Made by a program: the position numbers and the translations under genes. From Bacilli bacterium (GTDB lineage: Bacteria; Bacillota_I; Bacilli_A; RF39; UBA660), in contig JAFZKH010000009.1 in NCBI GenBank assembly GCA_017553685.1, positions 144,479 through 208,478 of the forward strand: DNA of 64,000 bases. Reading direction: 5' to 3'. Positions 1,330 to 28,300 of the stretch are shown one piece after another. Below the pieces are notes generated by a model, which was given only the letters and a program-made list of their open reading frames with translations, did no database searches and had not been told where the DNA came from. Numbering within the stretch: the first letter of the stretch is position 1; each line of letters begins with the position of its first letter.

Positions 1330-1827
1330 TTATATTCTTAATAATCGTCTTAAAACTTCGCTATCATATTTCTTTTCATCTTTATTATTTAAATCAACTT
1401 CAAAAGAACAATCTTTTTTATAATTCATATAATAACTTACATTATGACAAAACCATTCTAATCTCATAGATTCTATACTTCTATCCCAATCACTAGGATT
1501 CATTACTTCATAATAATTAATTATCTCTAATATGTCATTTCTAGTTTCTTTATTTGTTATACAATATGAATTTTGAATAACCATATTAGGATCTTCTTTA
1601 TCTCTTTCATCTCTAACTAATATATCATTAGGACTAATATTAGTTAAACTATTTAAATACTCTTCATTACCAATATAAACATATCCATCTGAATATTCCG
1701 CAAAAGGACCATTTTCTATATTTAAAATGGCATAATTTGGATGATATTTTTTCTTATTTGTATACGCAACTAATATAAGAACAGCTGCTGCAGCACATAG
1801 GAGTTTTTTCTTATTTTTACTTTTCAT
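1330..1827 (-). CDS. hypothetical secreted protein or lipoprotein
   Basis: ORF with signal peptide 'MKSKNKKKLLCAAAAVLILVAY'. Likely start at the internal Met of the 179-aa track ORF. No recognisable domain. Confidence 0.45.
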   Translation of the reverse strand: MKSKNKKKLLCAAAAVLILVAYTNKKKYHPNYAILNIENGPFAEYSDGYVYIGNEEYLNSLTNISPNDILVRDERDKEDPNMVIQNSYCITNKETRNDILEIINYYEVMNPSDWDRSIESMRLEWFCHNVSYYMNYKKDCSFEVDLNNKDEKKYDSEVLRRLLRI

Positions 1828-1854
1828 TATATTACCTCTGACTAAATTATAGCA

Positions 1855-1877
1855 CAAAAAAAGAACCAATTGGTTCT
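1855..1877 (-). terminator. intrinsic terminator hairpin (agaaccaa/ttggttct) with U-tract, downstream of the ATPase gene
   Basis: Inverted repeat 'agaaccaattggttct' followed by a T-run on the transcribed strand. Confidence 0.5.
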
Positions 1878-2744
1878 TTATTCTTTAAATTCATCACTAT
1901 GTTCTTTGAAGAATTCATTATATACTTTTACATTTTCTAACTCAGTCCATTTTTTAGATTTTACTGGTACACTATCTAAATCATATATTTTAGCTTCATT
2001 TAAAGCTAAAAGAAATGGAGAATGAGTAGCTATTATAAATTGACAATTATAAAATCTAGCAGATTCCTCTATAAATGTTTTTAATTTTAATTGGTTTTCA
2101 GCAGATAAACTATTTTCTGGTTCATCTATTATATATAAAGCATTATCTTCTATTTCATTTTGCCAAAAATCTAATGCAGTTTCACCATTAGATTCTTGCA
2201 CTATAGTATTATTTCTAAGTCTAGTTCTAACATACTTTGATACAGTCATTCTATTAGAATCTACTTTATTCTTTAAGTCTTCATATTGTTCTAATGAATT
2301 AAAATTTTGAGATGGAGTATTCTTATATTCATAATATTCTTTAACTAAATCTTCTTTTCTTCTATTAACACCTGAATTAATAGCTTTTAAATCAAGTAAA
2401 TAATCAAATACATCATCACTAGATATATATTTAATACCTTTGCAATCACCTTGATGAACAAAATCATAACCACAATTTACAACATAGTCATCAAAGAATT
2501 CTGTTTTTTTATCTATATTTCTTTTAGAGGCCCTTAATGTATCTCCTATTATATTTAGTAGTGTGGTTTTACCGGACCCATTTCCACCATAAAAGATAGT
2601 AATCGGTTCAAAGTCAATTACTTCAAATTCCTTTTCAGGAAATATTTTAAGAGGATACACATTATTATGTATATTCTTCATACCAAGTATCATATCATAT
2701 TCTTGGTTTTCAGTAAGTAATCTAAATCTCTTTAAAAAAACCAT
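1878..2744 (-). CDS. stand-alone AAA/ABC-like ATPase (COG3910/AAA_21-like)
   Basis: Walker A 'GGNGSGKTTLLN', Walker B 'LYIIDEPENSLS', and 'IATHSPFLL' (ABC H-loop-like). No transmembrane partner. Confidence 0.7.
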   Translation of the reverse strand: MVFLKRFRLLTENQEYDMILGMKNIHNNVYPLKIFPEKEFEVIDFEPITIFYGGNGSGKTTLLNIIGDTLRASKRNIDKKTEFFDDYVVNCGYDFVHQGDCKGIKYISSDDVFDYLLDLKAINSGVNRRKEDLVKEYYEYKNTPSQNFNSLEQYEDLKNKVDSNRMTVSKYVRTRLRNNTIVQESNGETALDFWQNEIEDNALYIIDEPENSLSAENQLKLKTFIEESARFYNCQFIIATHSPFLLALNEAKIYDLDSVPVKSKKWTELENVKVYNEFFKEHSDEFKE

Positions 2745-2784
2745 AATAATACCTCCTATATAATTTAATTATATCATAAAAATA

Positions 2785-3366
2785 TTATGAATTCTTTTTA
2801 TCTAATATTAATGGTGTAATATGTGTATCAAAGAATTCTGCTTCTAATTCTTCATAAAATGAATCAGCTCCTTTTGGAGCTTCATGTTTATAGATTATTC
2901 TATAAGCTTCTTCTCTATTAGAACGAGCTTTTTTATATATAGGTAATCCTCTTGAATTTAATAAAAGATATTTTTTAAATTCCTCAATTCTTTTTTCTAA
3001 TTCTTTTGCTTCACATAAAAAATATGGGCCATCTATATCTTTAGTTTCTATTATTACATCACCATACATTTCATGATCCTCATCTTCACTATATTTTCCA
3101 ATATAAATATCTTTTAATAACAAGCCATTATATACAAGAGGTCTTCTATAACCATAGGAAGATATATGGTGAACTTCTATTCTACTATCTGGTTTAAATA
3201 TACCAAATATAAAAATATCAACGTCTTCTTCCATTTCATCTCTTACTATTCCTTCAAACCAACCATCTTCTTCAACAAGCAATTTACCAGTCCAAACATC
3301 ATCTTCAGAATAATCATTATCATCTATATTTTTCCATTTACCTTTAATTGCATATAATTCAGTCAT
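2785..3366 (-). CDS. hypothetical acidic protein, apparently co-transcribed with the upstream ATPase
   Basis: 193-aa ORF 40 bp upstream of the ATPase on the same strand. No known motif recognised. Confidence 0.45.
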   Translation of the reverse strand: MTELYAIKGKWKNIDDNDYSEDDVWTGKLLVEEDGWFEGIVRDEMEEDVDIFIFGIFKPDSRIEVHHISSYGYRRPLVYNGLLLKDIYIGKYSEDEDHEMYGDVIIETKDIDGPYFLCEAKELEKRIEEFKKYLLLNSRGLPIYKKARSNREEAYRIIYKHEAPKGADSFYEELEAEFFDTHITPLILDKKNS

Positions 3367-3435
3367 ATTATCACCTTTTGATTAATTATTATAACATAAT
3401 CATATTTTATTACAATAAAAAGAACCTTACGGTTC

Positions 3436-3795
3436 TTAATTATTAATGGTCTTCATTTTTACAATGCTACAATCTTTGCATCTATATTGAGGATGTTTAT
3501 CATCAGTTCTATCATATTTACCCCATTCTACTATTCTATAACCTTTAGTCTTTTTATGACAGTCATGACATTCTACATCTTCTTTTATTTCCCATAAAGG
3601 TACATCAGATTTCTTTTTAAAGATAAATTTATCTATCCAAAAGAATATTAGACCTCCTATTAAATTTGCAATAATAGTAGCCCATAAAGTATTCATGTTA
3701 GATAATAGTTTTAATACAATAGCAAGTATTGGAGTACTTAATTGCCATCTGATTAGATATAGAATATATTTCTTTGTTAATTTCATATTTATCAC
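3436..3795 (-). CDS. small multi-TM membrane protein with C-terminal C4 zinc ribbon (possibly GtrA-like N-terminus)
   Basis: Hydrophobic segments followed by 'CHDCHKK...CKDCS' Cys4 ribbon. Terminator hairpin 'agaaccttacggttct' at 3421-3436. Confidence 0.5.
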   Translation of the reverse strand: MINMKLTKKYILYLIRWQLSTPILAIVLKLLSNMNTLWATIIANLIGGLIFFWIDKFIFKKKSDVPLWEIKEDVECHDCHKKTKGYRIVEWGKYDRTDDKHPQYRCKDCSIVKMKTINN

Positions 3796-4222
3796 CTATA
3801 ACAAGTATACCATAAAAAAGAACCCTATACCATAATATATGGCAGGGTTCGCCTCGTTTACATTTGGTGCACCTGTTCAATGCGTTGAGAAATAATAAAA
3901 AGTTAATTTCCATTTTAATTATAACATAATTTTAAAAAAATAAAAGTACTTTTAATTAAGTTTTACAGTATGACTTGCTCCCTTAATATATATAAAAAGA
4001 ATATTTAGGAGCATTTATTACCTATATATAATAATGATCAAACTATAATAATCCCAAAAATTAGGAGCAATTTTGTAAGTACAAAATAAGATTGGTGTCA
4101 TATAATTTGTTATATTATAAAGAATTATATTATATAATGACACCTACATCTTATCCTGATAGAAAAAATACTTACAAAATTAAGCATTTTTTGGGAGCTA
4201 GGGAGCAAATAAAAAAGCTAAA

Positions 4223-5557
4223 TTATTTTATTAATTTAGCATGTACTATTATTCGTTTATTTCCATCATAACTAACTAATGTAAGTATGTTATCAAAGCT
4301 ACCTACATATACATCATAATCATAATTACTTTTCTTTCTAATATCTTGTATATAATTAGCATAATCTATTTGTTTATTAAAATTAATCTTTATATCATCA
4401 TTAGATTCATATGTAGAAAATACTTGATATCTATATTCAAAATTATCTGATACATAAGTTATATAATGATATTCTTTTTTCTTTTGCCATTTATCTGTTA
4501 ATACTTTAGATAAACTCCCAAACATATCATTATTATTACTTCCATATATAACTATATTCTTATCAGTACCATCTAATTTATTTCTTGAATCCATATATAT
4601 CCAACCTGATCTAGATTTCTTCTTCAAGAAATTATGTTCTTTATAATATTTATTATCTTTACCTTTAACTACTACATGATTAATATTAGTAGCATTAACT
4701 TTAACATATCCTACAGTATTTTTATTGAGCTTCTTTAATCCATTAAAATCAATATCATACTCTTTATATCCACCATCTAATACATTAACATATTTCTCAT
4801 TTAATTGATCATTTAAAGGTTTATAACTAACTATTTTAAATATAGAGAATCCTATTATTAAAATAAATATAAGAATTAATGCTATATAAACCCAATTCTT
4901 TAGTTTTCTTTTCTTAACTATTTTCTTAGGTCTTTCTTCTCTGCCAAATGCTCTTTCTTCAATAACAATAGGTTTATCTTTTATTTCTTCTTTAATCTCA
5001 GGTTCTTCTACTACAAACTCTTTTTCTTCTGGTATATCTAATATATTTGATTCTTCTAATACTTTATCTAATTCTTCTTCCACAGATAAATTAGATTCTT
5101 TTATATCTTTATCATCTTCAAAAACAACGTCTTCAGGTTTTATTTTAGTTTCTTCTTTTTTATGATTATTAAAAATATCTGTTAATGTATAAGAATTAGT
5201 ATATTCAAATTGTTCTTCACGTACTACTGGTTTAACTTCTTTCTTAACTGTAGTCTTCTTTGTAGAGCTTGTACTCTTCTTAGGTGTTTTAGTGGCCTTT
5301 TTAGGAGTTGTTTTCTTTGTAGTACTCTTTTTACTATTTGTACTTTTCTTTGCAGAAGTACTTTTTTTAGTACTTGTAGACTTAGTTTTAATTGTACTAG
5401 AACTTACAGTCTTCTTAGTACTTGTTTTAGGTTTACTAGAGTTGCTCTTCTTAGTACTAGTTTTAGGTTTACTAGAATTGCTCTTTTTAGTAGTATTAGT
5501 TTTCTTAGTACTTGTTGTTTTCTTTTTAGTAGTAGTTTTCTTTTTTTCTTCTGCCAT
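4223..5557 (-). CDS. sortase B-fold protein lacking the catalytic His and Cys (pseudo-sortase), with long K/T/S-rich basic N-terminal tail and one TM helix
   Basis: C-terminal ~200 aa align convincingly to SrtB ('GWIYMDSRNK', 'IVIYGSNNNDMFGSL', 'ILTLVSYDGNKRIIVHAKLIK'). His of 'YGH' is Ser, Cys of 'TLSTC' is Tyr, and the protein contains no Cys at all; Arg ('KRIIV') is retained. RBS 'AGGAAG' 7 nt before 'MAEEKKK', so likely start is 5557; the track ORF runs to 5584. Confidence 0.75.
   Translation of the reverse strand: MAEEKKKTTTKKKTTSTKKTNTTKKSNSSKPKTSTKKSNSSKPKTSTKKTVSSSTIKTKSTSTKKSTSAKKSTNSKKSTTKKTTPKKATKTPKKSTSSTKKTTVKKEVKPVVREEQFEYTNSYTLTDIFNNHKKEETKIKPEDVVFEDDKDIKESNLSVEEELDKVLEESNILDIPEEKEFVVEEPEIKEEIKDKPIVIEERAFGREERPKKIVKKRKLKNWVYIALILIFILIIGFSIFKIVSYKPLNDQLNEKYVNVLDGGYKEYDIDFNGLKKLNKNTVGYVKVNATNINHVVVKGKDNKYYKEHNFLKKKSRSGWIYMDSRNKLDGTDKNIVIYGSNNNDMFGSLSKVLTDKWQKKKEYHYITYVSDNFEYRYQVFSTYESNDDIKINFNKQIDYANYIQDIRKKSNYDYDVYVGSFDNILTLVSYDGNKRIIVHAKLIK
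5411..5482 (-). repeat. in-frame 36-bp tandem duplication (2 copies, 2 mismatches) encoding 'SNSSKPKTSTKK' in the pseudo-sortase N-terminal tail
   Basis: 'cttcttagtacttgttttaggtttactagagttgct' followed by a near-identical copy. Confidence 0.7.
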
Positions 5558-5617
5558 GATATCACTTCCTATCATATATATCATTATATCACAAAAAAAG
5601 AAGAGATTAATCTCTTC

Positions 5618-8600
5618 TTAATTATTAATTCCTATTCTAAATACTGGTGTTACTTGTCTATTATTGCTAACATTACTATTATATGTTGAACCACCAACTA
5701 TTACAAACCATACATTATCTGCATTTGAATGTGGTGTTCTTATCCACCATTGAATTTGTCCTTTTAATCTACCAGAATTAGAATTATTTGCTGAATAAAA
5801 ATCTAACATTCTTGTATCAGTAAGTGGATTATTCTTATTGTCAGCGGAATGAGTTAATCCTATTTCATAAGCTGAAGATAAATATATTTTGTTTAAATTA
5901 GTATCATTTTCAGTAATAATAGGAGAATCTCCAGAAGGACCTGAACCTGAAACAATTGGATACGTAGGAATAATAACTGATTGTAAATCAGAAGGTAACT
6001 TATTGTAAAAATCACTATTTAACCAAGTGGCTAATGATGAACCTGCCCAACCGCCAGCATTATTATTGACGGAATAAATATTTTTGTTTGAAACTGAATC
6101 AATAAACTCAATTACTATACCACAAGCAGTTTGAGAATATCCTTCTGTTTCACATACTTCTGGTTTTGATGTATTGGCAAGTCTTACTGTATATGATTCA
6201 TTTATTGAATCATTATCCATATCCATTTCCACTTCTTTTTCACAGGAATCTGCAAGATAATAGTAATTAGGATCACTATTAATATTGCTTATTATTGTAT
6301 TCCACGAATCAGTTGCAAACGATCTACATCTAAAGAACCATTCTGCATATAATGTAGTATTTTCAGATATTAAATTTGTTATATCCTGAGTATTATCATA
6401 ATGAATTCCTGTTCCGTCTGCTTTCGTATTCCATCCAATAAAATTATGTTTTGATCTAGTATATGTATTTGGATTTAATGATGTTGATACACCATATGTA
6501 AATACTTGATCAGGCATATCATTTCCAGAACCACCATTTTTATCATATGTTATAGTATATTGATTAGCATCCCATTCTGCATATAGTATTACTTCACCGT
6601 CTATATCTAGATTCTTAACTAGTTGTTCATTATCATAGTGTGTTCCTTGTCCATCACTTTGTGTGTTCCATCCTAAGTAATTATAACCTTCTCTAGTATA
6701 AGTATTAGTATTTAAATTAACTTCTTCCCCATAAGCTATTTCTTGGTTAGGCATTTGATTTCCAGAACCACCATTTTTATTGAATACTACATGATATGGT
6801 GTTACTGCCCATTCTGCATATAATGTAATATCATTTTCACTCATTGTATTTGTTACATCTTGTTTATCATCATAATGTGTTCCTTGTCCATTTGCTAATG
6901 TATTCCATCCTGCAAATGCATAACCTGTTCTTGTATATTGATTTTCATTTAATAAATTATTTGGTATATCAAATACAATTATTTGTGCGCTCATTGTTCC
7001 TGTTGCATTTGGATCATCTGTATTTATATCATAAGTTATTGTATATTGTTTTGGTTCCCATATAGCATATAATTCTAATTCTCCAGAAGTTACTAAGTTA
7101 GTTACTTCTGCTTGATCAGAATAACTTGTTCCTGAACCATCTTCTTCTGTATTCCATTCAACAAAGTTATATCCTGTTAATTCAAATCCTAATTGATCTA
7201 GATTAACTGTTGTATCATATGTTATTGTTTGTGGAGACATTCCTCCAGTTGCTCTATCATCATTTTTCTTAAATACTATTCTATAATCATTAACATCCCA
7301 CTCTGCATATAATGTTGTATTATTAACAAATTCATTTGTTATATTTTCTTGATTATCATAATGATTACCTAAACCATCTGATTGTGTATTCCATCCTGAG
7401 AATGTATATCCTGGTCTAACATAAGCATTTTGTTTTAAGTATGTATTAACATCATATGTAACTGTTTGATTAGTCATTGTTCCGGTTACATGAGTATCAT
7501 CTGTATTATCATCAAATGTTATTGATATAGATTTTGGTCCCCATTGTGCATATAATGTTATTTCTCCATCTATATCTAAGTTCTTAACTGATTCTTCATC
7601 ATCATAATGAGTTCCTGTTCCATCAGATTCAGTATTCCATCCATAGAAATTATATCCTGTTCTTGTAAATCCATTTGGTGATAAAGTAAATGTTGTATTA
7701 TATGGTTTTGATTGAGATGCAGTTGTTCCTGTTGCATTTGGATCTGGTGTATTTATATCATAATTAACTGTATATGGAGTTGCTCCCCATCTAGCATATA
7801 AATTAACTATTCCAGATTCTGCTAAATTATTAACTGTTGCTCCATCTTCTATTTTAGTTCCTGTTCCGTCTGCTTTAGTATTCCAACTATCAAATGCATA
7901 TCCTTGTATAGTAAATCCATTACTTGTTAATGCTTTTGTTGTATCATATACCATTTCTAAATCACTCATAGAACCGTCTGTTATTAATGTAGTTCCTGGT
8001 TCTACTACTATTGATGCATCATTAATATTAAAATGTATTGTATATGGATTAGCTTTCCAAGAAGCAGTTACTGTCTTATCTTCATATATAGGTGCTGTTA
8101 TATCAAAATCTGTATTATCTTCATTTACCCATTTATCTATATGATATCCTGTTACTGTTGGACTTGGTAAACTATCGATTGTTTCACCATAATTAATTGC
8201 TTTTGTTGTTTCTGTAGTTCCATCATCTAATGTTACTATTATTTTATCATTTAAAGTATATGTACTAACTAATGATAAATCAAAAGTTAGTGTTGAAGCT
8301 GCTTTTGCGATTATAGGTAATGTTATTAAACCTATTAACATCATATTTAATGCTTTTTTCTTCTTTTTAGAAGTAGCTATTGATGTTACTAATCCAATTG
8401 ATGAAATAATTAACATTATATAACTTATATGAATATTATCTCCTGTTTTTGGATTAATTATTATAGTATCAGTTTTCTTTTCACCTTCATCTAAATATTT
8501 AATAGTGAATTTAACTGTATTATTTTGTGTTCTTTTTGTTATATCATTTACTAATGTTTTATAAATTGCTTTAACATCAAAGTTAAGTGTTCCATTTGCA

Positions 8601-8971
8601 CTTATTTTTTCATTTTCATGTTTATCATATTCATAATCTATAAAACTATTCTCATTATCATCTGTTATATCAAGTATTGTTATTTCTCTACTTAAATTAC
8701 TTTTAATAACCAATTTATAAGTTACTGAATCATTTAATTTATGAAATTCAATATTATTAATTACTTTATCATCAGTAAAGTTTGTTATTGTTCCTGTAAC
8801 ACCATCTGATTTATCTGATAGAGTTGCACCTGTTATTTTAAATGCGCTTGTTTCAGCAAATGCATTAATACTCATAAATAAAGACACGACAAATAGCACA
8901 GCAAATAATACTGTGAATAGTTTTGATTTATTAAGTTTTCTTTTAACTACTGTTTTAGCCATATCATGCAC
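5618..8971 (-). CDS. composite secreted protein: signal peptide, ~130-aa domain, internal NPKTG-TM-KKKKK cell-wall sorting signal, second signal-peptide-like segment (AKA|AS), ~8 Listeria-Bacteroides (Flg_new, PF09479-like) repeats, Cys-containing C-terminal domain
   Basis: Repeats of the form 'YTV.FD.N......P......Y.......N.(Y/F)TR.GY.F.GWNT..DG.G..Y......N......LYAEW'. 'NPKTG' at 8441-8455, followed by a hydrophobic stretch and 'KKKKK' at 8354-8368, then 'MMLIGLITLPIIAKAAS'. Confidence 0.75.
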   Translation of the reverse strand: MHDMAKTVVKRKLNKSKLFTVLFAVLFVVSLFMSINAFAETSAFKITGATLSDKSDGVTGTITNFTDDKVINNIEFHKLNDSVTYKLVIKSNLSREITILDITDDNENSFIDYEYDKHENEKISANGTLNFDVKAIYKTLVNDITKRTQNNTVKFTIKYLDEGEKKTDTIIINPKTGDNIHISYIMLIISSIGLVTSIATSKKKKKALNMMLIGLITLPIIAKAASTLTFDLSLVSTYTLNDKIIVTLDDGTTETTKAINYGETIDSLPSPTVTGYHIDKWVNEDNTDFDITAPIYEDKTVTASWKANPYTIHFNINDASIVVEPGTTLITDGSMSDLEMVYDTTKALTSNGFTIQGYAFDSWNTKADGTGTKIEDGATVNNLAESGIVNLYARWGATPYTVNYDINTPDPNATGTTASQSKPYNTTFTLSPNGFTRTGYNFYGWNTESDGTGTHYDDEESVKNLDIDGEITLYAQWGPKSISITFDDNTDDTHVTGTMTNQTVTYDVNTYLKQNAYVRPGYTFSGWNTQSDGLGNHYDNQENITNEFVNNTTLYAEWDVNDYRIVFKKNDDRATGGMSPQTITYDTTVNLDQLGFELTGYNFVEWNTEEDGSGTSYSDQAEVTNLVTSGELELYAIWEPKQYTITYDINTDDPNATGTMSAQIIVFDIPNNLLNENQYTRTGYAFAGWNTLANGQGTHYDDKQDVTNTMSENDITLYAEWAVTPYHVVFNKNGGSGNQMPNQEIAYGEEVNLNTNTYTREGYNYLGWNTQSDGQGTHYDNEQLVKNLDIDGEVILYAEWDANQYTITYDKNGGSGNDMPDQVFTYGVSTSLNPNTYTRSKHNFIGWNTKADGTGIHYDNTQDITNLISENTTLYAEWFFRCRSFATDSWNTIISNINSDPNYYYLADSCEKEVEMDMDNDSINESYTVRLANTSKPEVCETEGYSQTACGIVIEFIDSVSNKNIYSVNNNAGGWAGSSLATWLNSDFYNKLPSDLQSVIIPTYPIVSGSGPSGDSPIITENDTNLNKIYLSSAYEIGLTHSADNKNNPLTDTRMLDFYSANNSNSGRLKGQIQWWIRTPHSNADNVWFVIVGGSTYNSNVSNNRQVTPVFRIGINN

Positions 8972-9365
8972 CTCAAAAACTATAAATATGCCTTCCCTAT
9001 CTTAGATTATAATTCAATATAATTATATCAAAATCCAAAAACTAGAACAATACAAATAAAGAAAAAATACACTATTTTTTATAAAAGTGTAAAGTGGACA
9101 ATGATACTGTCTTTTTATGTAAATTAGAAGGACCATATATAACCATAATATATACCTGATTGTGTATATGTTTTAATGCAAAAAACATAAGAGCATAAGA
9201 GATTGTCCCCATGATTCTTGGAATCTGTTATTTCATAACAAATTTAATGGGGACAAACTTATTTTGCACTTGCAAAATTGATCCATCTTTATGGATATCT
9301 TTTATGCTTATTCCTTTATTTTATAAAGAAAAACTGTGGATTAAATTATGGTCATATTTTTATTG

Positions 9366-11231
<1,866 letters not shown>

Positions 11232-11378
11232 TCATTAAACTAATACCTTTAACTCCTTTAAATAATCATTATAAGTTTTAATATATTTCAGCAAATTCAT
11301 AAATTACCACCTTTTTCGGCTATATTTCCTTTACTTGGCTTTATATATTAATCTTTTTCTATTAAAAAGTCAATAGTA

Positions 11379-11663
11379 TTAGTTTTGATGAGTTTTTATA
11401 TAATTAGACAATTCACTAAATGGAATTGATTTTTCTAGTGTATTTATATAAACATCATCGCATTCATTGAAGAATAAATATGTATTATTTTGTATTTTTA
11501 GTTTATGAGGATTGATGTAAGCAAGATTAGTTTTATCTATATTTATTATTTCTCCTTCAATAAGTTTCCCTTTAAGATTAAGAAACATTAATAAGTTCTT
11601 TACTCTTTTATTTAAAGACTCCTCAATCTCATATTTTTCCTTAATAATTTGCATACCAATCAA
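11379..11663 (-). CDS. hypothetical small protein between tmRNA and the recombinase
   Basis: 94-aa ORF starting immediately after the tmRNA terminator. No recognisable domain. Confidence 0.35.
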   Translation of the reverse strand: MIGMQIIKEKYEIEESLNKRVKNLLMFLNLKGKLIEGEIINIDKTNLAYINPHKLKIQNNTYLFFNECDDVYINTLEKSIPFSELSNYIKTHQN

Positions 11664-11684
11664 CTCCTTTCATAGCAAAATAAA

Positions 11685-11709
11685 AAGGTTAATTGGAAAT
11701 TAACCTTTT
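11685..11709 (-). terminator. intrinsic terminator of ssrA (aaaaggttaa...ttaacctttt)
   Basis: Perfect 10-bp inverted repeat with flanking A/T runs, directly 3' of the tmRNA CCA end. Confidence 0.6.
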
Positions 11710-11744: not shown

Positions 11745-12117
11745 TGGTGGAGCTGAGGGGAATCGAACCCCTGTCCAAAATGGTTCATATTTAGGTACTA
11801 CAGGCTTAGCTAATTATAAAGATTCCTAAATTACTAAGTAATTAACAACAAATAATTTAGTAAGTCTATAAGATTCTTTATTATTTCTAGACTAAATAAT
11901 AATATATTCTGCTAAAACGAACCTTCTAAAACCTACGCAGAAAATAGATAGTAGAAAGTGCACTCACTAATTATTAAGCTAAAGCAGCACTATTAACTCT
12001 GAATAGTGATGCGAATGCGTTTGAAATTTTGTTTGAAATTATTTTTTAAAAGACTTAACGTGTCACTCCGGCCTGCACCTATAATACTAAGCAAATTGTC
12101 GAAGCCAATACAGCCCC
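11745..12117 (-). ncRNA. ssrA: tmRNA (transfer-messenger RNA, SsrA)
   Basis: The reverse complement begins 'GGGGCTGTATTGGCTTCGACA' and ends 'GGACAGGGGTTCGATTCCCCTCAGCTCCACCA' (T-arm plus CCA). The internal tag ORF ends '...AALA' followed by TAA TAA. Located directly downstream of smpB. Confidence 0.9.
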
Positions 12118-12159: not shown

Positions 12160-12606
12160 TTACCTATAATTTTTAAGTGCTCTAGCAGTCTCTCTGTCTG
12201 TGTCTCTTCTTTTAATTGCTTCTTTTTTATCATAAGTATGTTTACCTTTAGCAACTGCTATTTCTAATTTTGCTATATTTCCTTTTAAATATAGTCTTGC
12301 TGGAATAATAGTATATCCTTTTATTTCTACTATTCCTTGTAATTTATTTATTTCTTTTCTATTAAGAAGTAGTTTTCTAGTTCTAGTTTCTTCTAGATTA
12401 CTAGTACCTTTATCATAATTAGATATATGCATATTAAGAACAAATACTTCATTATTCTTAACTAATACATAACTATCTTTTAAATTACAAGATCCTTTTC
12501 TAATAGATTTGATTTCATTACCAGTTAAAACAATACCTGCTTCATATTTTTCTAGTATTTCATAATCATATCTAGCTTTTCTATTTAGTATTTCCATGTT
12601 TATCAC
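12160..12606 (-). CDS. smpB: SsrA-binding protein SmpB
   Basis: Typical SmpB sequence ('[10 protein letters not shown]', 'GNEIKS', '[10 protein letters not shown]'). Position upstream of ssrA. Confidence 0.95.
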
Positions 12607-16301: not shown

Positions 16302-19300
16302 TTATTGATTACTAACATCTGATTTTCTTTTTAATACAAACATTATAGAAAGTACTGCAATTATAGATATAGCTATAAGCAGATAATTAACTTTCATTAT
16401 ACCTGTTTGAATTGTAATTACTAATGTAGCTACTGAAGATGCAGACATATGACCAAAATCAGAAATAATATTTTCTTTAATATTTGGACTTAATGTTCCA
16501 TCATCATATATAGTAAATTGTAATTCAGTATTATAATTATCAACTAACTTATATTCTCCAGCATCTAAATCATTTAAGTAAATTCTACCTTTAATAGGTT
16601 TTAAATCAGTTGTTTTTCTACCAATTGTATATTTTCCAGCTCCATCTGGATTAACTTTAACTAATTCATAAGAACTTCCTTCATACTTATATAAGTTATA
16701 AGTCTTAGAAGTATCTAACGCATTACCATCTTCCATTCTAGTAATAATTATATCTTTACCATTATCATTTATACCAAATATACTTGATAGTAATTTAGAT
16801 ATATTTGATTGTAAATCTTCACCATTTCTAGAACCATTTCTTAATGTAATGTTATCTGGAATAGTAAATCCATTATCATTAATATTATGGTAATTTAAGT
16901 TAATGGTTAATGAGTATTGTGGATCTAGTACTAAGTCTTCAGTTAATTCAACAGAGAAGTAGAATTCATCACCAATCTTAACTTCTGGACATCCGTTTTG
17001 TTCAGTATAGTTTTGAACACTAGCATTAATAGCTTCTTGAAGAGTATTATAACAAATACCTTGTACACAAGCTATCTTAGTATCAACTTCTTCAGCATGT
17101 TTTAAGTACATAATATGTTTACCAGTTAATACGCCAAGTTCATCATATTCAGGAGATGCATATGGAATAAATCCTGTTTCTACATCATCAATAGTAGCAT
17201 CGATTACTATACTCTTAGTACTCTTGAAGTATCCATCATAAATCTTTACAAATGAATCATATCCAGATGATGTAATAGCATAACCACCATTATTAGTTAT
17301 TTTTGGTGAGTTAGTATTAACTATACCATCTTTAGTACCAATAGTTAATTGTCCCTTATTAGTTATAGGTCCTATTTCTCCACCAAGGATTGTAGCAGCA
17401 CCATGGTAATTAGTTATAGTAATTGAACCAATAGTACCATTATTAATAGTAGCTTCAGTACCTCTATCAGAATCAAGATTTAAATATCTGATTACTCCAC
17501 CATTAATAGTTACATTTGAATTATATACATTATTTATTCCATTAACAGTTCCAGAATTAATAGTTAATGTATCATGATTTTCTACATAATATAGAACTTC
17601 AGTACCATCTAATACTAGTTTTTCACCATTTATTATCTTTTCAACAGTACCACCAGTTAATGTTAAATCATTATTAGAATTTCCTGCACTAGTACTTAAA
17701 TTCTTAATGTAAGCACCTGTGCCTAATGAAAGTGACATACTAGAGTTTTCTAAAGTTGAAATTGTAGAATTAGTTATATTCATAACTCCATCGTTACCAC
17801 TTGAGTGATGATGATAGTTTTTATAGTAAGAACCTGTTGTATTACTAATATTTGCTGTACCATCTTCTTCATTAACAATGTTCTTTACTTCACCACCAGT
17901 AACATTTAAAATAGCATTACTTGGATTATCCCAATCACTATTTGCAACACTTTCTACAATACCATTAGAGATATTTGCAGTACCAAAGTTGTTAATCTTA
18001 TCAATACGTCCTTCAACTACATTTAAAGTTCCAGAAGTATTAGTAACACTTAATACTCTACCTCTATCATTAGTATTGTCAGCAATGTAAGCTTCATCAG
18101 TTACTGTTACTGTACCAGAAGTTATATTAAGATTTGCATCTAATGTTTTACCATTTAAATCTAGAATAATACCTTTATCAACAGTAATATCATAATTACT
18201 TGTTACTTCAGATACTGTTTTAACTAATTGAAGTTTTTCACCATCTGCAGCATTAGATATTGCAGTTCTAATTGATGAATAACTTACATCTTGATCAATA
18301 TTCTTAATTACTTCTTCAGTATTTATTAACATGTAAGGTCCACCATTTGGACGATATATAGTAAAGTTTTCTTCTTTATCAGTAAAGTGACATAAATTAT
18401 TTTCATCTAAGAATAAACTTCCACCATATAAATTGAATTCTAAATCATCTCTATTCTTACATGAAGCGGATGAAATATACATACTAGATTCAGCAGTATC
18501 ATCTTTCTCGCCCATTGTAATTGTACCAACTTCATTAAACAATTTAGATATATAACCACCAGTTTGTGTTACAGAACCTTTAACATGATTACTATAACTT
18601 TGATATAAAATAATAGCATATTTATAATCACTATCAGTTCCATGATTAACTGATCCACCAGACATTACAAAGTTACCACCATCAATTTCAATAGCAGCTA
18701 CAGTATAATCTAATCCGCTTTGACCAGAATGTTGATATGGAGCCTCACAATGATAATATCTATAACCATTATCATAAGTATAATCACAGAAATGTTTAGT
18801 AGGCATCTCATTATCAAGACTTATAGTATTACTATCAAAGTATACTGTTTTATTAGGACCTATATACACAGATGCATTATTAATAGCAAAATATCCATGT
18901 TCAAATTCCTTTTTAGATTCATAATGTGGATAGCCTTTAAATTCTTGTCTTGTAGATGTACCATCTGAACAAGAATTAATAGCACTATATCCAACATAAT
19001 AATTAGTAGGATTATATCCTTTTGAAGTAATGGTTGATGCAGTTATTGTTGAATCCAAATAACCAGTTCCATGATATCCTTCACCATATGTATAAATATT
19101 TGCATTAATTAATGTAGTTTTACCAGCATCATCAATACCTTTTCTAGCACCAAATATAGCACCAGTATATGTTAAATCACCAGTATTTGTAATTGCTGTA
19201 TCATAAGCAGCATCTATTACACCTTGATTAAATACCATTGTACCAGTATTTTCAATACCACTTTCAGCAAACACACTTAAAGTAGAAGCATTTATAGTTC

Positions 19301-22300
19301 CGGTAACATTATTAATAATTACTTTACCTGCTACAGCAGCTTTTTCAAGGTTATTATATGAATCTAGCTTATATGTCTCAATAGTAGAATTACTAATATT
19401 TACTGTACCACTATTTAATAATGCAGTATATGTATAATCACTATCAAAATATAGGTTACTAATATTCATAATAGCATTTTCATTATTAATAATTGATTCA
19501 GATAATGCTTGATGAATATTCATACCAGGACTACTTTGAATGTATTCAATAGCATCCTCTAATGATTGATCTGTATGTACTTTAATATATGTTGGATTAT
19601 AACAACTTGTACTTGTTGCATCACCAGTTATACTTAAAGTTCCATTATTTGTAATTACATTTGATTGATATGAAATAAAGTCACTTCTATAAATGTCCAT
19701 TGTTCCATTATTTTCAACCATAGTTTTATTAGCTTTAATATTTCTTACAGAGAATCTATTAAGAGTCATTGTTCCATTATTAACAATAGCACTTGTTTTA
19801 GACATTACATCTAATATTGGATCTGTTCCAGAATTTGGAACTACAGCACCATAGATTGTAATATTACCATTATTAATTAGGAATGGTCTTTCTATAGTTT
19901 CACCTGAATTTGAATCATAATAAGCTGTATTATTAATCTTAATATTATTTTGACGAGCAGTCATATTTGAATGTACAAATGATCCAGAACCATCATATGG
20001 TTCAAATTCATCTTGTGATGTAGTTGTAAGTGGATCAGTTGGAGGATTATCACTCTCGTAATATCTATAATATATTGGTTTATAATCAGCAGTACCATAG
20101 CTAAAGTATAAACTAAACTTCTTATCAGCAGCTACTACTAATGAAGGAGTATCTGAGAAGTTTGTATAATCTCTTGTCCAAATCAATTGATCATCTGTAT
20201 TGGCTTCATCAAATGCTTCTTGAGCATCATAATAATACTTTCCTGTAGTATAGTTAAGAACTAAAGGTAAAATATCAAGATATTTTTCTTTTGGACTCTT
20301 TAGATTATCAAATATAACATCATATCCTGTTTCAATATCTTCAATATGATAGTCTATTGGATTACTACCAGCTTTAAATACACCATCATAGAAGTATAAA
20401 TTGTTTTGAGCATATGAAGAACCAGTTTCACTTATACCAAAAGTTCCACCTCTAATTTCAGGTTCTGTTTTAGAAACATTTAATGTTTCTGTACCAGGTT
20501 TTAAATCACCCTTAGTACCAACAGTAACATTAATACCAGAACCATCTTTAACAAGAATTGCAGTATCAGATGTATTAATCTTACCACCAGTTATATTAAT
20601 AGTATGTCCACTACCTGTAGCAAGTAATGAACCATTAACAATTCCATCTGTTTGGTTATATTCATTACCATTACCTACAATGTTAAATCTTAGGTTATTA
20701 TATTCACCATCATTAATATTAACAATACTCTTAGATTGATCTTGATCTATTGTAGTATAAATTCTACTCTTTGATGATTTTCCACCAAACTTAGAATTAT
20801 TTAAGTTAAGAGTTGAATCAACAAATCTACCTAAGTTAGCTTCTATAGAAATATTGTTATATCTTGAATCATTATCAACATTAAAGTTAGTAATATCAAC
20901 AACAGAATTATGAGTATTAAATAATTGTTTTGTATGTTTAGCTTCTAATTCTGTAGTAGAATCAGCATAATATGCTTCATATGAGCTATTATCCTCTTTT
21001 GTATAGAAGTAACCACCACCAACAGTAACATTAGTATTATTTGCATAAATAGTATTAGCATTATACTCACCATTATTAATAGTTAAATTAATTTTTTCTT
21101 CACCATCAGTATCAGATATAATATCTAATCCTGTAGATGTAACATTATCAATAGTAAGATTAGCTTTATTCTTAACTAAGTTACTTTGAGTATAGTTATT
21201 AATAAAGTTACCACCATTAAATGTCATAGCATTATTATTTTCAAATGCAGTTTGACCTATAACATATATAGAACCACTACCAGTTACATTTAATGTACCA
21301 TTATTTGTAATTAGAGAATCTCTACTATATGAGTTAACACTAGCACCATTAGCATAATTAATAGTTAATGATTTACCTTCAGGTATTGTAACTCTATTAG
21401 CAGTATTATAATTACCAGATATATTAATAACTGAATTATCTGCAGCATTATTAATAGCTGTTTGTAATGATTTATATCCTGTACCATTTACTTCTACTAG
21501 ATTTCCTCTAGAAGAACTATCTATAGTATCAAGAGTAACTTTACCATTACCATCATATAAAACATCATATCCATCAGTTAAATCACTAATAGGTATATAA
21601 ACAACATTAGTCATATTACTACTTGTTGATGTATTTTGAATAGTTCCATCATAGTATTTAATATCACATAAGTTATCTGAATTATTTGGATATTCAATAG
21701 ATTTAATTAAAGTAGTTCTTAAATCATTACCATCTTGATATATTGTAACTAAATTACCAGATGTATCTTTATATATTCTATTATTATCTATTTCAGGTTC
21801 AAAGTATGAAGTAATTCCATTTCCTTTTAATTCAAAATCATCCATACCAACTGTACCCATTGGGTGACAATCACCAGATATTGCATATGAATCATTTGTT
21901 GATATAATAGTTGGACCTTCATTTACATTACCATCATCATCACCAATTGTTAATGATGTTCTAGCATAGTTATATGCACCAGGTTGATTAGTTTCCCAAG
22001 CATATAAGTTATAATAATAATATTTTAATAAGAATGGTATGTTTTGAATAGCAGATTTATTATTACCTGTGATAACACTATCACCTTTTACAGTTAAATT
22101 ACCACGATTCATAACACTTGTTGGAACAGTAACTCCATCTAATACCATATTATGTTCATTTAATAGCATTTCATTATTTATTGAACCACCTGTTATATTA
22201 GCAGTTCCTTTTAAATCTTTACCCGCATGAATATCAGGATTAAAATATTTATCTAGTTTTTGGCATTCACCCATATGGTTATAATATTCTGCACAACTAT

Positions 22301-25300
22301 ATTGAGATACTACAGTATGTAAATTATATAATTTACCATAAGATGCTCCATTAGAGTTTAATGTACCCATATTGTAAATATTAGATATTGATCCACCAGT
22401 TATATTAGCTTTATCAAAGTTTAATATTACTGGAGAAGTAGTATTACCTGTTATTGAGGAAGTATTATTTTCTTCTTCAACTACATTAAGAGTACCTGAA
22501 TAGTTAACTATTTGATTAGGTGTTACAACTGTATTATAAATACTTAAAGTTGGATTTTCACGATTATATAGTTTGCTTTGTTGGTATGCAACATATGAAT
22601 CATTTTGATAAATTGAATCAAATGTTACACCATTATATAAATATGCATCACCATAGTTATTGAATAAACCTGCTAATACTGTTCCATCATCAGTTTTAAC
22701 AGTTCCTTCATTAAAAATAGAACCACTAAATCTATTGTAGTATTCAGTATTACTATAATATGAATATTTATATGAAATACTCTTAACACTAATTGAATAT
22801 GACTTATCATAAAGAGATGAATTTACTTTATTAGTAGTATCAGGTCTATTATCATAATTCATATAATCGCAAGAATAATATCCAAGTCTTTCATTAACAT
22901 CAATATTAGATGAATGAATTCTTAATTCAGTATTAGGTTCAACATATACACCTATACCAATTTTACCTTCAATATCTATATTATTAAGATCATGACTTCC
23001 AAGATTATATTGAACACCTATTGTATCAAAACTTCCTTCAGTAGTACATGAAGTTGTATTTAATTTTATTTTTAAATTACCATTGTTTACTATATCACCA
23101 TCTAGGTTATAAATACCTATACTCTTTGATTTATCAACATTTATAATAGGTGAACTTTCAGCAATTATAGTTCCTTCATTATAAATACCATATTTTGAAG
23201 TAACTTTAACTTTTACATCTCTTAAAGTTAATGTTGAATTATTCATATTATGAATAACTCCAGTACCAGAACCATTAGATAATTCTGACATACCTTCTAA
23301 ACTAGGTTCTGTCTTAACATTATATGTTTTAGGTAAGTTTTCTCTTAATTGTTCTATTTCATCACCAACAATTAATGAAATCTTAGCAAATCCATCGCCT
23401 TCATTACCATACATTGTACCAGTACCATCATGTGTTGGTATACTTAATGTACCAGATGTAGTAGATCCGCTTAATAAGAAGTGGTTTTCAACAAGGTATC
23501 CAGAAACTGGTTGAGTTCCAGTAGGTAAATATACAAATCCAGAACCTCCACCTCCACCATTGTCGTCATCACCAGATGAATCAGGTGTAGTATTACCTCC
23601 ACCAAACCAGCCACCGCCGCCTGCGCCGCCGTAGCCGCCAGCTTGATCCACTCCATCAGCACCAATACCAAAACTTGCATTAGTACCAGGAGCGGTTTGA
23701 GTACCACCATCACCACCAGTACCAAATCCACTAGTATCAGCACTTGAACCAGTAGCACCTCCACCGGCACCACCAGCTTGGTATCCACTACCATCAGATC
23801 CACCGCCACCGGCAACTATAATTCTGTTAAATGGTGAATTTCCTTCAACTCTTATATCAGTAGCTCCACCACCACCGTTATAAACTTGTCTAGCTCCACC
23901 ACCATTGAATCCTCCTTCAGGACCACCAGTGTTACCAGATCCACCTACATATATGTAAATAGTTTCGCCTTCTTTTAATTCAACTAGACCTTCAGAGTAA
24001 CCTCCGTTACCACCATAAACAGCATTTATTCTATATCCACCTTCAGCACCCCAAACTTGAAGTCTATATATACCTGTTTGAGGAACAACATATTCTTGAG
24101 CAGCACCAGTATAATTAAAATCAACAACTGATGTTGGATCAGGATTATCTAAGTTAATACCAAATTCATCTAAATAATCCATAAGGTGATCTAGTTTATA
24201 TTCTTCACTGACTGTACATCCGTCACATAATCCAGCATATTCTTGATATTCAGCTAAATCATCATCATATGTTTCCAATTTTCTTTGATATTTTGTATCA
24301 ACTAGAGTTAAATTACCGTAATTCTTAATTACATAATCATCACCAGTAGATAAATCATATCCATTTAAGTCTAATATAACTTCTTCACTATAATCAACTT
24401 CTAATGCTTTAGTTGTACTAACAGATCTAAGTAATTGAACAGTATCAACATTTTCATTAAATTCTCTTATTTCTTTTACTGGATGATATTCACTAGTAGT
24501 ATTACTTGTGTTCATTTCTTCAACTTTTAATGATAATGTAGATCCATTATTATTATATGTAACTACTTGTAGATAATGAACTTTACCTTTTTCTAAAGTA
24601 AATGTTGGTCTATCTTCAAATTTATAATAGTTACTTGGTAAAGTATATTTCCAGTCATCATAGATAACTCTATATGCCGATAAATCTATAATAGGTATGT
24701 TTTCACTATCACCAACTGTATATACATTTCTAGAACCACCATTATAAATAAGCGAATATGTTTTATCAGAAGTAGACTCAGTTAAATCGATTTTAAATAC
24801 TTTAACTGCTATATCTCCATTTTCAGCATTTAATGAATTATATGTATCAGTTTCATCATCATATTCAAAACCATAAAGTGTATTAGTATTTGCAAACACA
24901 GGTTCACTAGCATTTCTCTTAACAACATATGATTCTTCTTCTCTTGTATTTGCAACATCTACTGTTCCAGTAAATATTGTTGGACCACCAATTGCCATAA
25001 ATTGATCATCTATTGGATTTAATCGAATATTATATAAAGAATAACCCCATTCATAATATGACATATAATTATAACGATAATGGTAATATGGACTTGAGTA
25101 TTCTTCATAGTCATATCCACCACCACTAGCTATATGTAAGTAATATATTTTGCCTTTTTCTAATACTACATTAAAGCTACTATTAGATGTCTCTAAAGTC
25201 TTTGCTCTATTATTGTTTAGTTCTTCTTGAGATAAAGCTCTATTATTATTTGTTAAATAGAATCTATTTTTACTATAATCTCCTGTACTACCATCTAAAT

Positions 25301-28300
25301 ATAATACTTGATCCTTATCATAATTTGTTAAATCAATTTTGATATATGAATCTTTATAACTATCTAAAGGATTAAATGCATTAGTATTTGCAGCATATCT
25401 ATAATTAAATACACCATTAATATAGTTTCCTTCAAAGTCAGTTGCTTTATATGTTTTAATATCAGTTATTTCAATATTTGGATATCTTTCATATGTATTA
25501 TTATCAGGTGATTTTGCTTTTACTCTTAGTTCATATTCATATCCACCTGGTAGATTATAATAAAGGTATCCTTCACAATATTCAGAATAGCAATCGTTAT
25601 TATATTGTCCACTTTCTATAGCTATAAGATATTCTTTTCCATCTTTTTCTCTCTTTTGGAAGATTCCTAAATAGTTTCTATCACTTGTAGAATTATAATA
25701 GAATTCATCATGAACCATATCACCAAGAGTAGATCCAGAAGTTTCTAAATAAATATAACCTGAATAATAACCATTTGTATATGCTTTTGTATTATTATAA
25801 TTGACTAAAACTGTTTCTCCTTGTGGATCATTTGTTAAATCAATTGTCGCATATGTATATGTAGATTGATTTGCTTGTGTATTGTTTGTAGTAATAGTTT
25901 TACCATCTGATTTTAATACATAATCTCCGCTTGAGTTATTTAATAAATCAGTCATAATATTATTACTTGTTTCATCCTTATTATAATTTAATAAATTACT
26001 TGAATCTCCACGTTTATATACATCAATAGAATTAATAATTAATTGATCTTGACATCCTACACTCTCAAATTCTTGTCTAGTTGGATAAGTGTCAGGATTC
26101 TTAACCATTTTTTGATATTGTATCTTTAGATAGTATTTTTTACCACCCTCTAAAGAAGTATTTCCATTTCTTGGACCATAAGTAGCATATCCAGCACGAA
26201 TATTGCTATCACCCATGTCTCTAATAATATCTCTATTAGAACCATAGAATTCTCCAAGCCAGTTTCCACTGGATGGTCTTTTATCTTCTCCAACATACAT
26301 TTGAGCATATGAAAGAGCTACTGTAGATGAATTATCCTCATAGTAACTTTCCATAGTATAATTAACATTTACATAATAATAGCCTTCAAGACCAGTTAAA
26401 TCAATTTCAATAACACCATAAGCTACACTTGTTTCTGCAACATATTGATTATTTGATCTAATTGTTCCATCAGTAGAATCATAATAGAATCCATATTCTT
26501 TAGTAGAAATTTCAGTTTGAAGTTCAACATTATTAGATACCTTATCTAAATCAGATAAAGTAATATCATTAATAGTTGCTTCACCTAAATATGTACTATA
26601 TTCACTATTACGGTTTTTAAAATATTGTAAATCAAGATAATACATTTTACCTTTTTCAAGTTCAAACGAATAATTTTCTGAATCATGACGATATGGAGCC
26701 ACATGATCTCCTAAAATATTTTTAGTATAATCATCTATTTCATGTACATCAAATATATAATAATTCTCTCCATATACTGGTCCAGAACTAGTATCTTGGC
26801 CATTTATAAAACTAATTGTTTGGTTATCTCCATTAACTATTTCAGGTGTATAATCAATGCTTAATACTTTATTATTTGTTTCATTAGTTAAATCAATTAT
26901 TACATGTGAATTAGTTCTTTGTGCATATCTATTTCCTGAGTATGAAACTAGAGTATCTGTATTATTATCATATACAAATTTATATGTTCCTACAGATTGA
27001 ACATCTGACATAATTGATTTAGGTTCATTATCAGTATAAATAGTTGTGTTACCTCTATTGGCATCATCCATAGCAGAACCAAGCTTAGCATAATAAACTG
27101 AGTTATTAATTCTTGCTTCTGGAGCAGTTAATCTATTTAATGTAACTACTTGATAATTTGTACCACTAATAGTTTCAATATTTGATACAGCTTCATATGA
27201 ATATTCTGTTCCTGTTACTTTACCATTAACAGCACCAGAACCTACAATTGAACTGTTAGGAGATACAATTCTTCCATCAAATATTGTTAAATATCCATTA
27301 GTTTCACTTTTAATACCATTAGTTTCACCATAAACATATGGTTTTGTAGTAGATACAATTGAACCATTTACTTTAACATCAGAATAACCTTCTCCTAAAG
27401 TCATATGGCATCCTGCTTTATTTAATAAAGCAATACCAGTACTATTAACTAATTTACCAGGTTCTTCTCCTTCTGGAGTACTTTCTATTAAAGTAAAACT
27501 ACCATTATTTTTAATAGTATATTCAGGTATAACACCTGCAACAATCTTACCATTTAAATCTAATGTTAAATCTTGTCCTTCTAATACTTGAACACTTTCA
27601 TCTGTACCAGTAACCATTTGAATAGTACATTGAACATTTTTACAATCATATAAATCTTCATAATCAAAAGCTTCTGCTAATGATTCAAAGTTAATATACT
27701 TATCTTCTTTTGGTACAGTAACTTGATTGGTATCAGGATCTATTGTGTCTTCAAACAATTGATTATTATAACCAATTAATCTAGCTACTATTCTAGGAGT
27801 AGTAGTAGTTGCTTCTAGTTCATCACTAAATACATAGTTACCAGCTTTATCAAACGCTTTTATTTTAAATGTATATGTAGTTGATGGAGCAAGTCCAGTA
27901 ACCATATAAGTACTAACTCTTTCAGTAGGATAATTGTTTCTACAAGCTTCATATCTTTCAAAAGTTGTTTCATTATAACATTCAAAACGTTTTTCTCCTA
28001 CTTTAACATTGTCTTGATATATTTCATAATAATTGATTCCAGATTCATTATCTGATGAATTAACATTTAAAGTTACAGTACTCTTATTAGCAGAATTTAA
28101 ACTAAATAGAGTAATAGTAGGATTTAATTTATCAATATTTACTATTTGATGATTAACAACTGTACTATCTACATTTTGTTTAGATGCTTTAGCAGTTATA
28201 GTAGTATTTTCTTCTACTTCAAATGGTTGATAGTAAGTATTATAATTATCTGAACCAATCTTATATAAATAACTATAACCTGTATTGTCTAATAAATTAG

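Follow-up and report, generated by a model that had tools for sequence, protein, structure and literature searches.

Sortases staple surface proteins onto the wall of the Gram-positive cell and are textbook enzymes, drug targets and protein-engineering tools. Class B sortases (SrtBs) are represented by solved structures from Staphylococcus aureus (1NG5/4LFD), Bacillus anthracis (2OQW), C. difficile (4UX7/5GYJ) and C. perfringens (5B23). Here we describe a catalytically dead relative of these enzymes, hereafter the pseudo-sortase, encoded in a 64,000-nucleotide stretch (the window; positions 144,479 to 208,478 of contig JAFZKH010000009.1, assembly GCA_017553685.1) from a Bacilli bacterium of the RF39 group. 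Its fold, N-terminal helices included, is that of the solved SrtBs, with which it also has in common a predicted type II membrane anchor, 30-37% sequence identity and a neighbouring gene for a protein with an NPxTG-type signal. However, it lacks the catalytic His and Cys, and most of its family also lacks the Arg; the positions equivalent to Leu96, Tyr181 and Ser221 are changed and two loops are shortened, while a charged tail of ~220 amino acids, predicted to be cytoplasmic, is added.

SipA (LepA) of Streptococcus pyogenes is a signal-peptidase-like protein that was shown experimentally to be needed for sortase-dependent pilus polymerisation (PMC4049620). Like the pseudo-sortase, it has a peptidase fold minus the catalytic residues and is encoded beside sortase substrates, and it is thought to bind at the cell surface (PMC4049620). 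SipA differs in having the signal peptidase fold with its cleft kept, whereas the cleft of the pseudo-sortase is remodelled and variable. By analogy, SipA may serve as the nearest precedent for a dead peptidase that aids sortase-dependent assembly. The second sortase B-type gene of C. difficile 630 is a stop-codon pseudogene absent from other C. difficile lineages (PMC4155245). It likewise yields no active enzyme, but the pseudo-sortase gene is instead intact, conserved across lineages and under purifying selection. A full-text literature search, with most subscription journals outside its reach, found no paper on a catalytically dead, conserved sortase, this C. difficile pseudogene being its one related item, which agrees with the first-pass annotation of this DNA in treating the protein type as uncharacterised.

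The gene and the residues that define its dead state are as follows.

4223..5557, minus strand: pseudo-sortase gene, 444 codons plus stop; the open frame reaches 5584
4226..4828, minus strand: residues 244-444, class B sortase fold devoid of catalytic residues, predicted extracellular (profile, structure, alignment)
4538..4540, minus strand: Ser340 (AGT) at the position of catalytic His130 (alignments)
4268..4270, minus strand: Tyr430 (TAT) where real SrtBs have the nucleophile Cys223, so that TLSTC reads TLVSY (alignments)
4253..4255, minus strand: Arg435 (CGA), kept at the position of Arg233 (alignments)
4640..4642, minus strand: Lys306 at the position of the pocket residue Leu96 (alignments)

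An upstream in-frame ATG of the open reading frame (ORF) lies at 5584. Translation likely starts instead at ATG 5557 (MAEEKKK...), giving 444 amino acids, and ATG 5584 is unlikely to be used, because AGGAAG (5565-5570) lies 8 nt upstream of the former, relatives begin with MAK, MAE or MDK, and the 444-aa form is the one on record. The NCBI entry MBR4830941.1 is an identical 444-aa product entitled 'MAG: class B sortase [Bacilli bacterium]'. The same protein is encoded, with its ORF intact, on 11 contigs from several assemblies, and the four displayed loci that carry it represent four samples (two ENA assemblies and two Logan runs). The G+C content of the region, 25%, equals that of the whole window. 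Sample labels (XIEF21) together with sheep and goat relatives (RGIG) suggest the ruminant gut as habitat.

The first reading of the C-terminal ~200 amino acids as a class B sortase is borne out by profile and structure comparison. The alignment to the NCBIfam model TIGR03064 (srtB) spans residues 228-439 of the protein and positions 7-224 of the 235 in the model (E=1.3e-33, 116.2 bits); the score lies below the curated equivalog cut-off of 153.75, so that homology is certain while equivalog status fails. Pfam PF04203, the other profile proposed for this comparison, gave no match at E<=0.1. The sole Pfam match of the protein, HCMV_UL116 (E=0.047), was rejected as low-complexity noise, and PADLOC and PHROGs gave no match. 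All solved SrtBs were found by phmmer against the PDB, at 3.7e-24 to about 1e-20 (B. anthracis 3.7e-24, C. difficile 1.4e-23, S. aureus ~5e-21). The AlphaFold (AF2) model of the transmembrane helix plus domain has a pLDDT (predicted local distance difference test) of 93.2 and a pTM (predicted template modelling score) of 0.85, and it shows the eight-stranded barrel with N-terminal helices of class B sortases. By Foldseek comparison of the domain model, the first 19 places are all taken by SrtBs, led by those of B. anthracis, C. perfringens, C. difficile, S. aureus and L. monocytogenes (TM-score 0.82-0.89; best root-mean-square deviations 1.7-2.1 A).

Residues were mapped in S. aureus SrtB numbering, with the reference sequence verified against 4LFD. 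Hidden Markov model (HMM), pairwise and multiple alignments agree on Ser at the position of His130 and Tyr at that of Cys223, and the two residues just after the His130 position are deleted relative to real SrtBs; the catalytic His is invariant among 353 canonical relatives. The absence of both residues, noticed at first pass, is thus upheld in alignments on a fold confirmed by structure prediction and comparison with the solved enzymes, and the cysteine count of the whole protein is indeed zero, so that it cannot be a thiol transpeptidase. Because the nucleophile is missing, transpeptidase activity on an NPxTG-type signal is predicted to be absent. The Arg that had been called conserved is present here, but other members of the family have Q, L, M or K in its place, and across the family the whole triad is gone. 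An enzyme that works through other residues, for example a Ser or Thr nucleophile, or through other chemistry, is very improbable: in most members a Ser stands one position before the former Cys (TLVSY), but this residue is Arg in P0003 and Thr in P0241 and P0243, and no His, Cys or other pair of nucleophile and base is conserved across the family. A sequencing or assembly artefact, as had been considered from the outset since TAT is one substitution away from TGT, has a negligible chance. The identical protein comes from independent assemblies and samples, the change from His to Ser needs two substitutions and a two-codon deletion, and relatives, likewise without His and Cys, show I, L or T at the Cys position and N, K or L at the His position.

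The family of dead SrtBs was defined as the pseudo-sortase together with P0001-P0005 and P0240-P0243. By a word-indexed search, close relatives of 72-81% identity were found, all without His and Cys. An exhaustive HMMER search of 1.84 billion cluster representatives returned 9067 sortase matches, headed by P0001, P0005, P0240 (60%), P0241 (58%), P0242 (46%) and P0243 (43%), and in 6/6 of these top 50%-identity cluster representatives (43-81% identity) both catalytic residues are absent. Whether the replacement of His by Ser and Cys by Tyr is conserved had been raised at first pass; the loss is shared by homologs, but the replacing residues vary (S/N/K/L at position 130 and Y/I/L/T at position 223). 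In a neighbour-joining tree, the pseudo-sortase groups with P0001, P0003, P0004, P0005 and P0240 at 100% bootstrap; adding P0241 gives 58%, and all nine family members come together, with P0242 basal, at 26%. From the shared architecture a single origin of the family is likely, the deeper members being unresolved in this tree.

When the best 150 cluster representatives retrieved with the pseudo-sortase are considered, about 10 lack both His and Cys. Outside the family, dead or half-dead forms (P0119, P0063, P0250/P0314 and P0378) and forms that lost His only (P0092, P0275 and P0286) are scattered among canonical SrtBs, and all of these look like independent losses. P0119 (717-1775 of locus L005) was tried as a distant family member and rejected; it is the lone degenerate member among 119 canonical SrtBs of ~380 aa and has no sorting-signal neighbour. 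When GTDB genomes were scanned with only the domain, nothing was returned. With the family alignment the scan gave 80 loci, which also served to survey the lineage's sorting signals and where 75/75 ORFs covering the triad have the canonical His, Cys and Arg, and the five incomplete sortase ORFs have His where it is covered and Cys in one; hence no GTDB species-representative genome holds a family member, as the scanned ORFs are all canonical where covered. Annotated plasmids and phages yielded only canonical srtB of <40% identity.

Codon alignments of four family genes gave, for the transmembrane helix plus sortase domain, ratios of nonsynonymous to synonymous substitution (dN/dS) of 0.19-0.26 in 6/6 pairs; for the tail the ratio is 0.33 where alignable and ~1 where not. 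The nine family members were compared with 353 real SrtBs at the positions conserved in these at >=90%. They have kept core positions of the fold (N92, Y95, G108, W109, D113, Y128, F138, S171, Y173, F186, T219, L220 and H237) and lost those of the active site (L96, N124, H130, Y181, S221, C223 and R233). Judged from these comparisons, the barrel is under constraint and the old catalytic groove is not. One rival reading is a decaying relic, an inactivated copy of a dedicated srtB whose function has gone. It would account for the loss of every catalytic residue across the family, the drift of active-site positions, a broken copy at one locus (L093) and the independent losses elsewhere in the tree (P0119, P0063, P0250/P0314 and P0378), yet we regard it as improbable, given the low dN/dS of the domain, the persistence of full-length ORFs in lineages 43-81% identical, the conserved core with its high-confidence model, and the conserved promoter, ribosome-binding site (RBS) and tail layouts described below. 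With six clusters devoid of His and Cys, dN/dS of 0.19-0.26 and an ORF intact on 11 contigs, the gene is best described, at the level of sequence, as a conserved pseudoenzyme under purifying selection and not as a pseudogene.

A published list (PMC5118464) names the pocket residues of S. aureus SrtB that touch the NPQT peptide in their complex. Asn92, Tyr128 and Ile182 are kept in the pseudo-sortase; Leu96 is replaced by Lys, Ser221 by Val, Tyr181 and Glu224 are deleted, and the b7/b8 loop is shorter than in real SrtBs. The Leu96 position is L in 98% of canonical relatives. Across the family, the change from Leu96 to Lys and the deletion of Tyr181 are each seen in 7/9 members. These data bear on a decoy or inhibitor that would bind the signal in the classical groove without cutting it, and so shield the adhesin from the real sortase or hand it over. 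The kept fold and pocket residues N92, Y128 and I182 agree with such a role, as do a neighbour that carries the lineage's canonical signal and the precedent of SipA, which keeps a peptidase-like cleft (PMC4049620). We nevertheless hold it to be quite unlikely, because contact residues of the published list (PMC5118464) are changed (Leu96, Tyr181, Ser221 and Glu224), the b7/b8 loop is shortened and the position of Arg233 is variable. Of the roles suggested at first pass (scaffold, substrate receptor or decoy), a receptor or decoy acting through the old groove is weakened by the remodelled pocket and the variation at former active-site positions; a non-catalytic helper is favoured.

The gene directly upstream encodes the partner surface protein.

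5618..8971, minus strand: partner surface protein, 1117 aa (ORF, domain matches, signal)

It consists, in order, of a signal peptide, a ~140-aa module, NPKTGDNI, a transmembrane helix, KKKKK, a second transmembrane helix, eight Listeria-Bacteroides repeats and DUF6273. A protein with an NPKTG signal does lie directly upstream, as the first-pass annotation had it, but the signal is internal: NPKTGDNI (codons 8441-8455) lies at about residue 175 of 1117, and an ectodomain of ~900 aa follows the second transmembrane helix. If cut at this signal, the protein would fall into an N-domain linked to the wall and a C-terminal part held in the membrane. Internal sorting signals within the same protein layout also occur at 9123-10469 of locus L001 (NPETND) and 10635-11702 of locus L017 (VPNTV). 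The ~140-aa modules of the window partner and the L001 protein are 26% identical.

A large (N/S)PxTGDNI surface protein stands directly upstream in 5/6 informative loci; the linkage was found in the window, L001, L091, L092, L094 and L095 and not at L099, while L098 is uninformative. Among the relatives, the signal is C-terminal (NPKTGDNI in L001, NPTTGDNI in L091 and L094, SPFTGDNI in L095, and the same tail in L092), the passenger domains differ, and the adhesin-linked loci show four different flanks. In 80 related genomes, the signal most often found next to real SrtBs is NPKTG, and a GDNI continuation is found in 27/77 signals. The partners thus resemble the usual substrates for sortases of this lineage, and the description of the signal as of clostridial SrtB type gives way to that of an ordinary signal of the lineage's own real SrtBs. 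The window holds a FemAB homologue, a D-Ala-D-Ala carboxypeptidase and a 4840-aa adhesin with an IQTG-type signal, from which a working sortase pathway elsewhere in the genome is expected; the partner would presumably be cut by a sortase encoded there. The 4840-aa ORF (16302-30824, minus strand) has ALK_LTK_GRD, Listeria-Bacteroides repeats, fn3 and CarboxypepD_reg, and its C-terminus, ...VITIQTGIMKVNYLLIAISIIAVLSIMFVLKRKSDVSNQ, is a sorting signal of IQTG type that lacks the customary Pro.

Between the partner gene and the pseudo-sortase gene lies a compact set of signals.

5583..5619, minus strand: intergenic signals (hairpin, T-run, extended -10)

The hairpin AAGAAGAGATTAATCTCTTCTT (5598-5619, 9-bp stem) overlaps the stop codon of the upstream gene. 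It is followed by a T-run (5593-5599), TGATATAAT (5583-5591), about 12 nt, AGGAAG and ATG. Terminator-like sites were found five times against 0.9 expected. The order of hairpin, T-run, TG(T/G)TATAAT and RBS is kept in the window, L001, L091, L094, L095 and L099, and the hairpin sequences differ among the six loci. Because a generic promoter scan performs at chance level in such AT-rich DNA, the case for a promoter rests on this conservation. The pseudo-sortase most likely has its own promoter and receives at most read-through from the adhesin gene; simple co-transcription of the two, as originally assumed, does not fit a terminator-like hairpin and a conserved extended -10 between the genes in six loci.

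The N-terminal half of the protein is composed of the following elements, with residue numbers of the 444-aa form.

5219..5557, minus strand: basic Lys/Thr/Ser low-complexity tract, predicted cytoplasmic, residues 1-113 (composition)
4898..5218, minus strand: acidic Glu/Asp-rich segment, residues 114-220 (composition)
4829..4894, minus strand: single transmembrane helix WVYIALILIFILIIGFSIFKIV, residues 222-243 (model helix 6-29)

The basic tract has 35% K+R and 46% S+T (net +36) and contains a tandem 36-bp duplication (5410-5445 and 5446-5481, 94% identical); the acidic segment has 31% D+E (net -12), includes a conserved stretch, KIKPEDVVFEDDKDIKESNLSVEEELDKVL, and terminates in a basic flank, RPKKIVKKRKLKN. 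These features, with the one helix at 222-243, are those picked out at first pass, and the duplication has now been located. The N-side flank of the helix is strongly basic and, by the positive-inside rule, the protein would be a type II, N-in single-pass membrane protein. AF2 on the basic tract gave a pLDDT of 29-38 and no secondary structure (shallow alignment), and the full-length model (8-sequence alignment) was poor, at pLDDT 46; the tail may thus be disordered, to which the full-length model lends weak support.

The same order of K/T/S basic tract, acidic stretch, one transmembrane helix and dead SrtB fold is found in P0001 and P0240-P0243, where the basic tract has about 35% K+R and 33-47% S+T (net +15 to +41) and the acidic part ~30% D+E. 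The basic tract of P0003 has the same composition as that of the pseudo-sortase; P0004 has a short tail only, and the N-terminus of P0005 is not family-like. Sequence is conserved across the family inside the acidic part (KIKPEDVVFE.DK.IKESNLSVEEELDKVL). Long tails are not unique to dead SrtBs, because canonical SrtBs of gut Bacilli (P0121-P0239, also P0244, P0253 and P0262) have a charged cytoplasmic extension of 110-240 aa before the transmembrane helix, as in the dead form. P0121-P0239 differ in keeping His, Cys and Arg in 119/119, and their extensions carry E(V/I)LDFT repeats and no Lys/Thr/Ser tract. These proteins, of about 380 aa, have a conserved ~110-aa cytoplasmic N-terminal domain, and one is recorded as 'class B sortase [Candidatus Aphodocola sp.]'; many further top sortase matches are 400-615 aa long. 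Long cytoplasmic SrtB extensions seem common in these lineages, and to our knowledge they have not been described.

A function centred on the tail and unrelated to sorting is a serious rival, although on balance an unlikely one. The barrel would then be no more than a stable extracellular or membrane anchor, and binding to DNA, RNA or anionic lipid would fall to the histone-H1-like basic tract, serving the mobile element or the cell, for instance, as a tether to the membrane. No hallmark of the family is more consistent than the bipartite tail, kept down to 43% domain identity; the tail of P0242 weakly matches the chlamydial histone-like HC2 (a precomputed match); and the free drift of the old groove, the gene's own inferred promoter and the absence of a sorting-signal neighbour beside P0240 are all in keeping with it. 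It is hard to reconcile with the (N/S)PxTGDNI adjacency in 5/6 informative loci with different flanks, which is difficult to explain otherwise, or with purifying selection on the extracellular domain while the tail changes faster (dN/dS 0.33 to ~1). In addition, the tail of P0004 is short, and slippage in AT-rich genomes readily makes Lys/Thr/Ser tracts, as in the 36-bp duplication.

The surroundings of the pair in the window include the following.

9366..11222, minus strand: large serine recombinase (integrase type) of a putative island (Resolvase and Recombinase; phrog_95 integrase, 1.8e-117)
11379..11663, minus strand: 94-aa ORF beside the recombinase, also in L001 at 1802-2083
11745..12117, minus strand: tmRNA gene, likely island integration site (RF00023, 139.8 bits)
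12160-12606: smpB, adjoining the tmRNA gene

The window is chromosomal, with rpoB/rpoC-sized ORFs, EF-Tu, an L10 leader, enolase, RNase R, smpB and tmRNA, and the gene order is smpB, tmRNA, 94-aa ORF, large serine recombinase, adhesin and pseudo-sortase. At L001 the same four-gene block (recombinase region 1610-4072) lies beside tRNA-His with unrelated flanks; the recombinases of the two loci are 44% identical and the pseudo-sortases 76%. The block looks like an integrative island with the adhesin and pseudo-sortase as cargo. No att-type direct repeats flanking it were found in the window or L001, which is unsurprising for serine recombinases. At L094 the pair lies between a Mob_Pre relaxase and another large serine recombinase, so that it is apparently carried by mobile elements at three loci (window, L001 and L094); at L095 it is chromosomal, beside uvrA. 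Downstream of the pseudo-sortase, at 1330-3795 (minus strand), are genes for four proteins, one membrane/zinc-ribbon-like and of 119 aa, one of 193 aa, an AAA_15/AAA_21 ATPase of 288 aa and one of 179 aa; the ATPase has PtuA/AriA-type PADLOC matches of about 1e-14, and these genes may be defence-type cargo of the same island. Elsewhere, the FemAB-family gene (34795-36069, plus strand) is the only large plus-strand gene of the window and coincides with its only interval of positive GC skew, and two ORFs of 604 and 654 aa at 30919-34718 (minus strand) lie in the most AT-rich part (20-23% G+C) and have no Pfam match.

The best explanation, to which we give an even chance, is that the pseudo-sortase is a functional, non-catalytic accessory protein of low-GC gut Bacilli, derived from sortase B and binding rather than cutting. 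It would have kept the place usual for a dedicated SrtB, directly behind a large (N/S)PxTGDNI adhesin, and an intact barrel, having lost the His-Cys(-Arg) machinery and a large part of the pocket for the sorting signal. The protein may hold or position the adhesin, a genuine sortase or a wall precursor at the membrane and thereby influence adhesin display, and the charged tail could be a cytoplasmic docking or tethering element. We infer this accessory role as a whole from the fold, the catalytic loss, the conserved dead state, selection, adhesin linkage and the mobile setting. Several observations weigh against it. The former catalytic positions vary within the family, including that of Arg233, so the old groove is not conserved; few family-specific conserved residues were found (nine members against 353 canonical), and together these leave no candidate ligand site. 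At L099 no protein with a sorting signal is encoded upstream of P0240, nor was a canonical or second sortase found anywhere in the 64-kb window or less than 10 kb from a family locus. Given the hairpin and the separate promoter, expression of adhesin and pseudo-sortase may be uncoupled. A domain dN/dS of 0.2 indicates moderate constraint only; at L093 (1-750) the relative P0006 is a broken copy, its C-terminal 137 aa in frame with stops upstream; and the family is small and known from metagenomes only.

A bolder form of the accessory role is possible but doubtful. The protein would be the first functional pseudo-sortase, sometimes mobile together with its adhesin, and would control whether, where or when the adhesin reaches the host's real sortase, with the histone-H1-like/acidic tail coupling this extracellular event to something in the cytoplasm. 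The protein as a whole would be the bacterial equivalent of dead proteases of the iRhom type. iRhoms and derlins, eukaryotic inactive rhomboid-like proteins, are relatives of membrane proteases in which catalysis was lost and a long N-terminal extension on the cytoplasmic side was gained, and they work through client binding. Fold, kingdom and pathway are unrelated to those of the pseudo-sortase, and the comparison is an analogy only.

The name 'class B sortase' given by annotation implies an activity that the pseudo-sortase cannot have. Because dead forms are automatically annotated in this way, genome-inferred sortase counts and substrate-enzyme pairings are wrong in these lineages. The conserved linkage and the tail provide a concrete, testable lead; its interest is moderate, since the family is small and from uncultured bacteria only, and pseudoenzymes are common in other families. 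A family of dead SrtBs that keeps the fold, has acquired a charged tail and is encoded beside sortase substrates would suggest that the display of surface proteins in gut Firmicutes involves a layer of regulation or chaperoning so far unrecognised.

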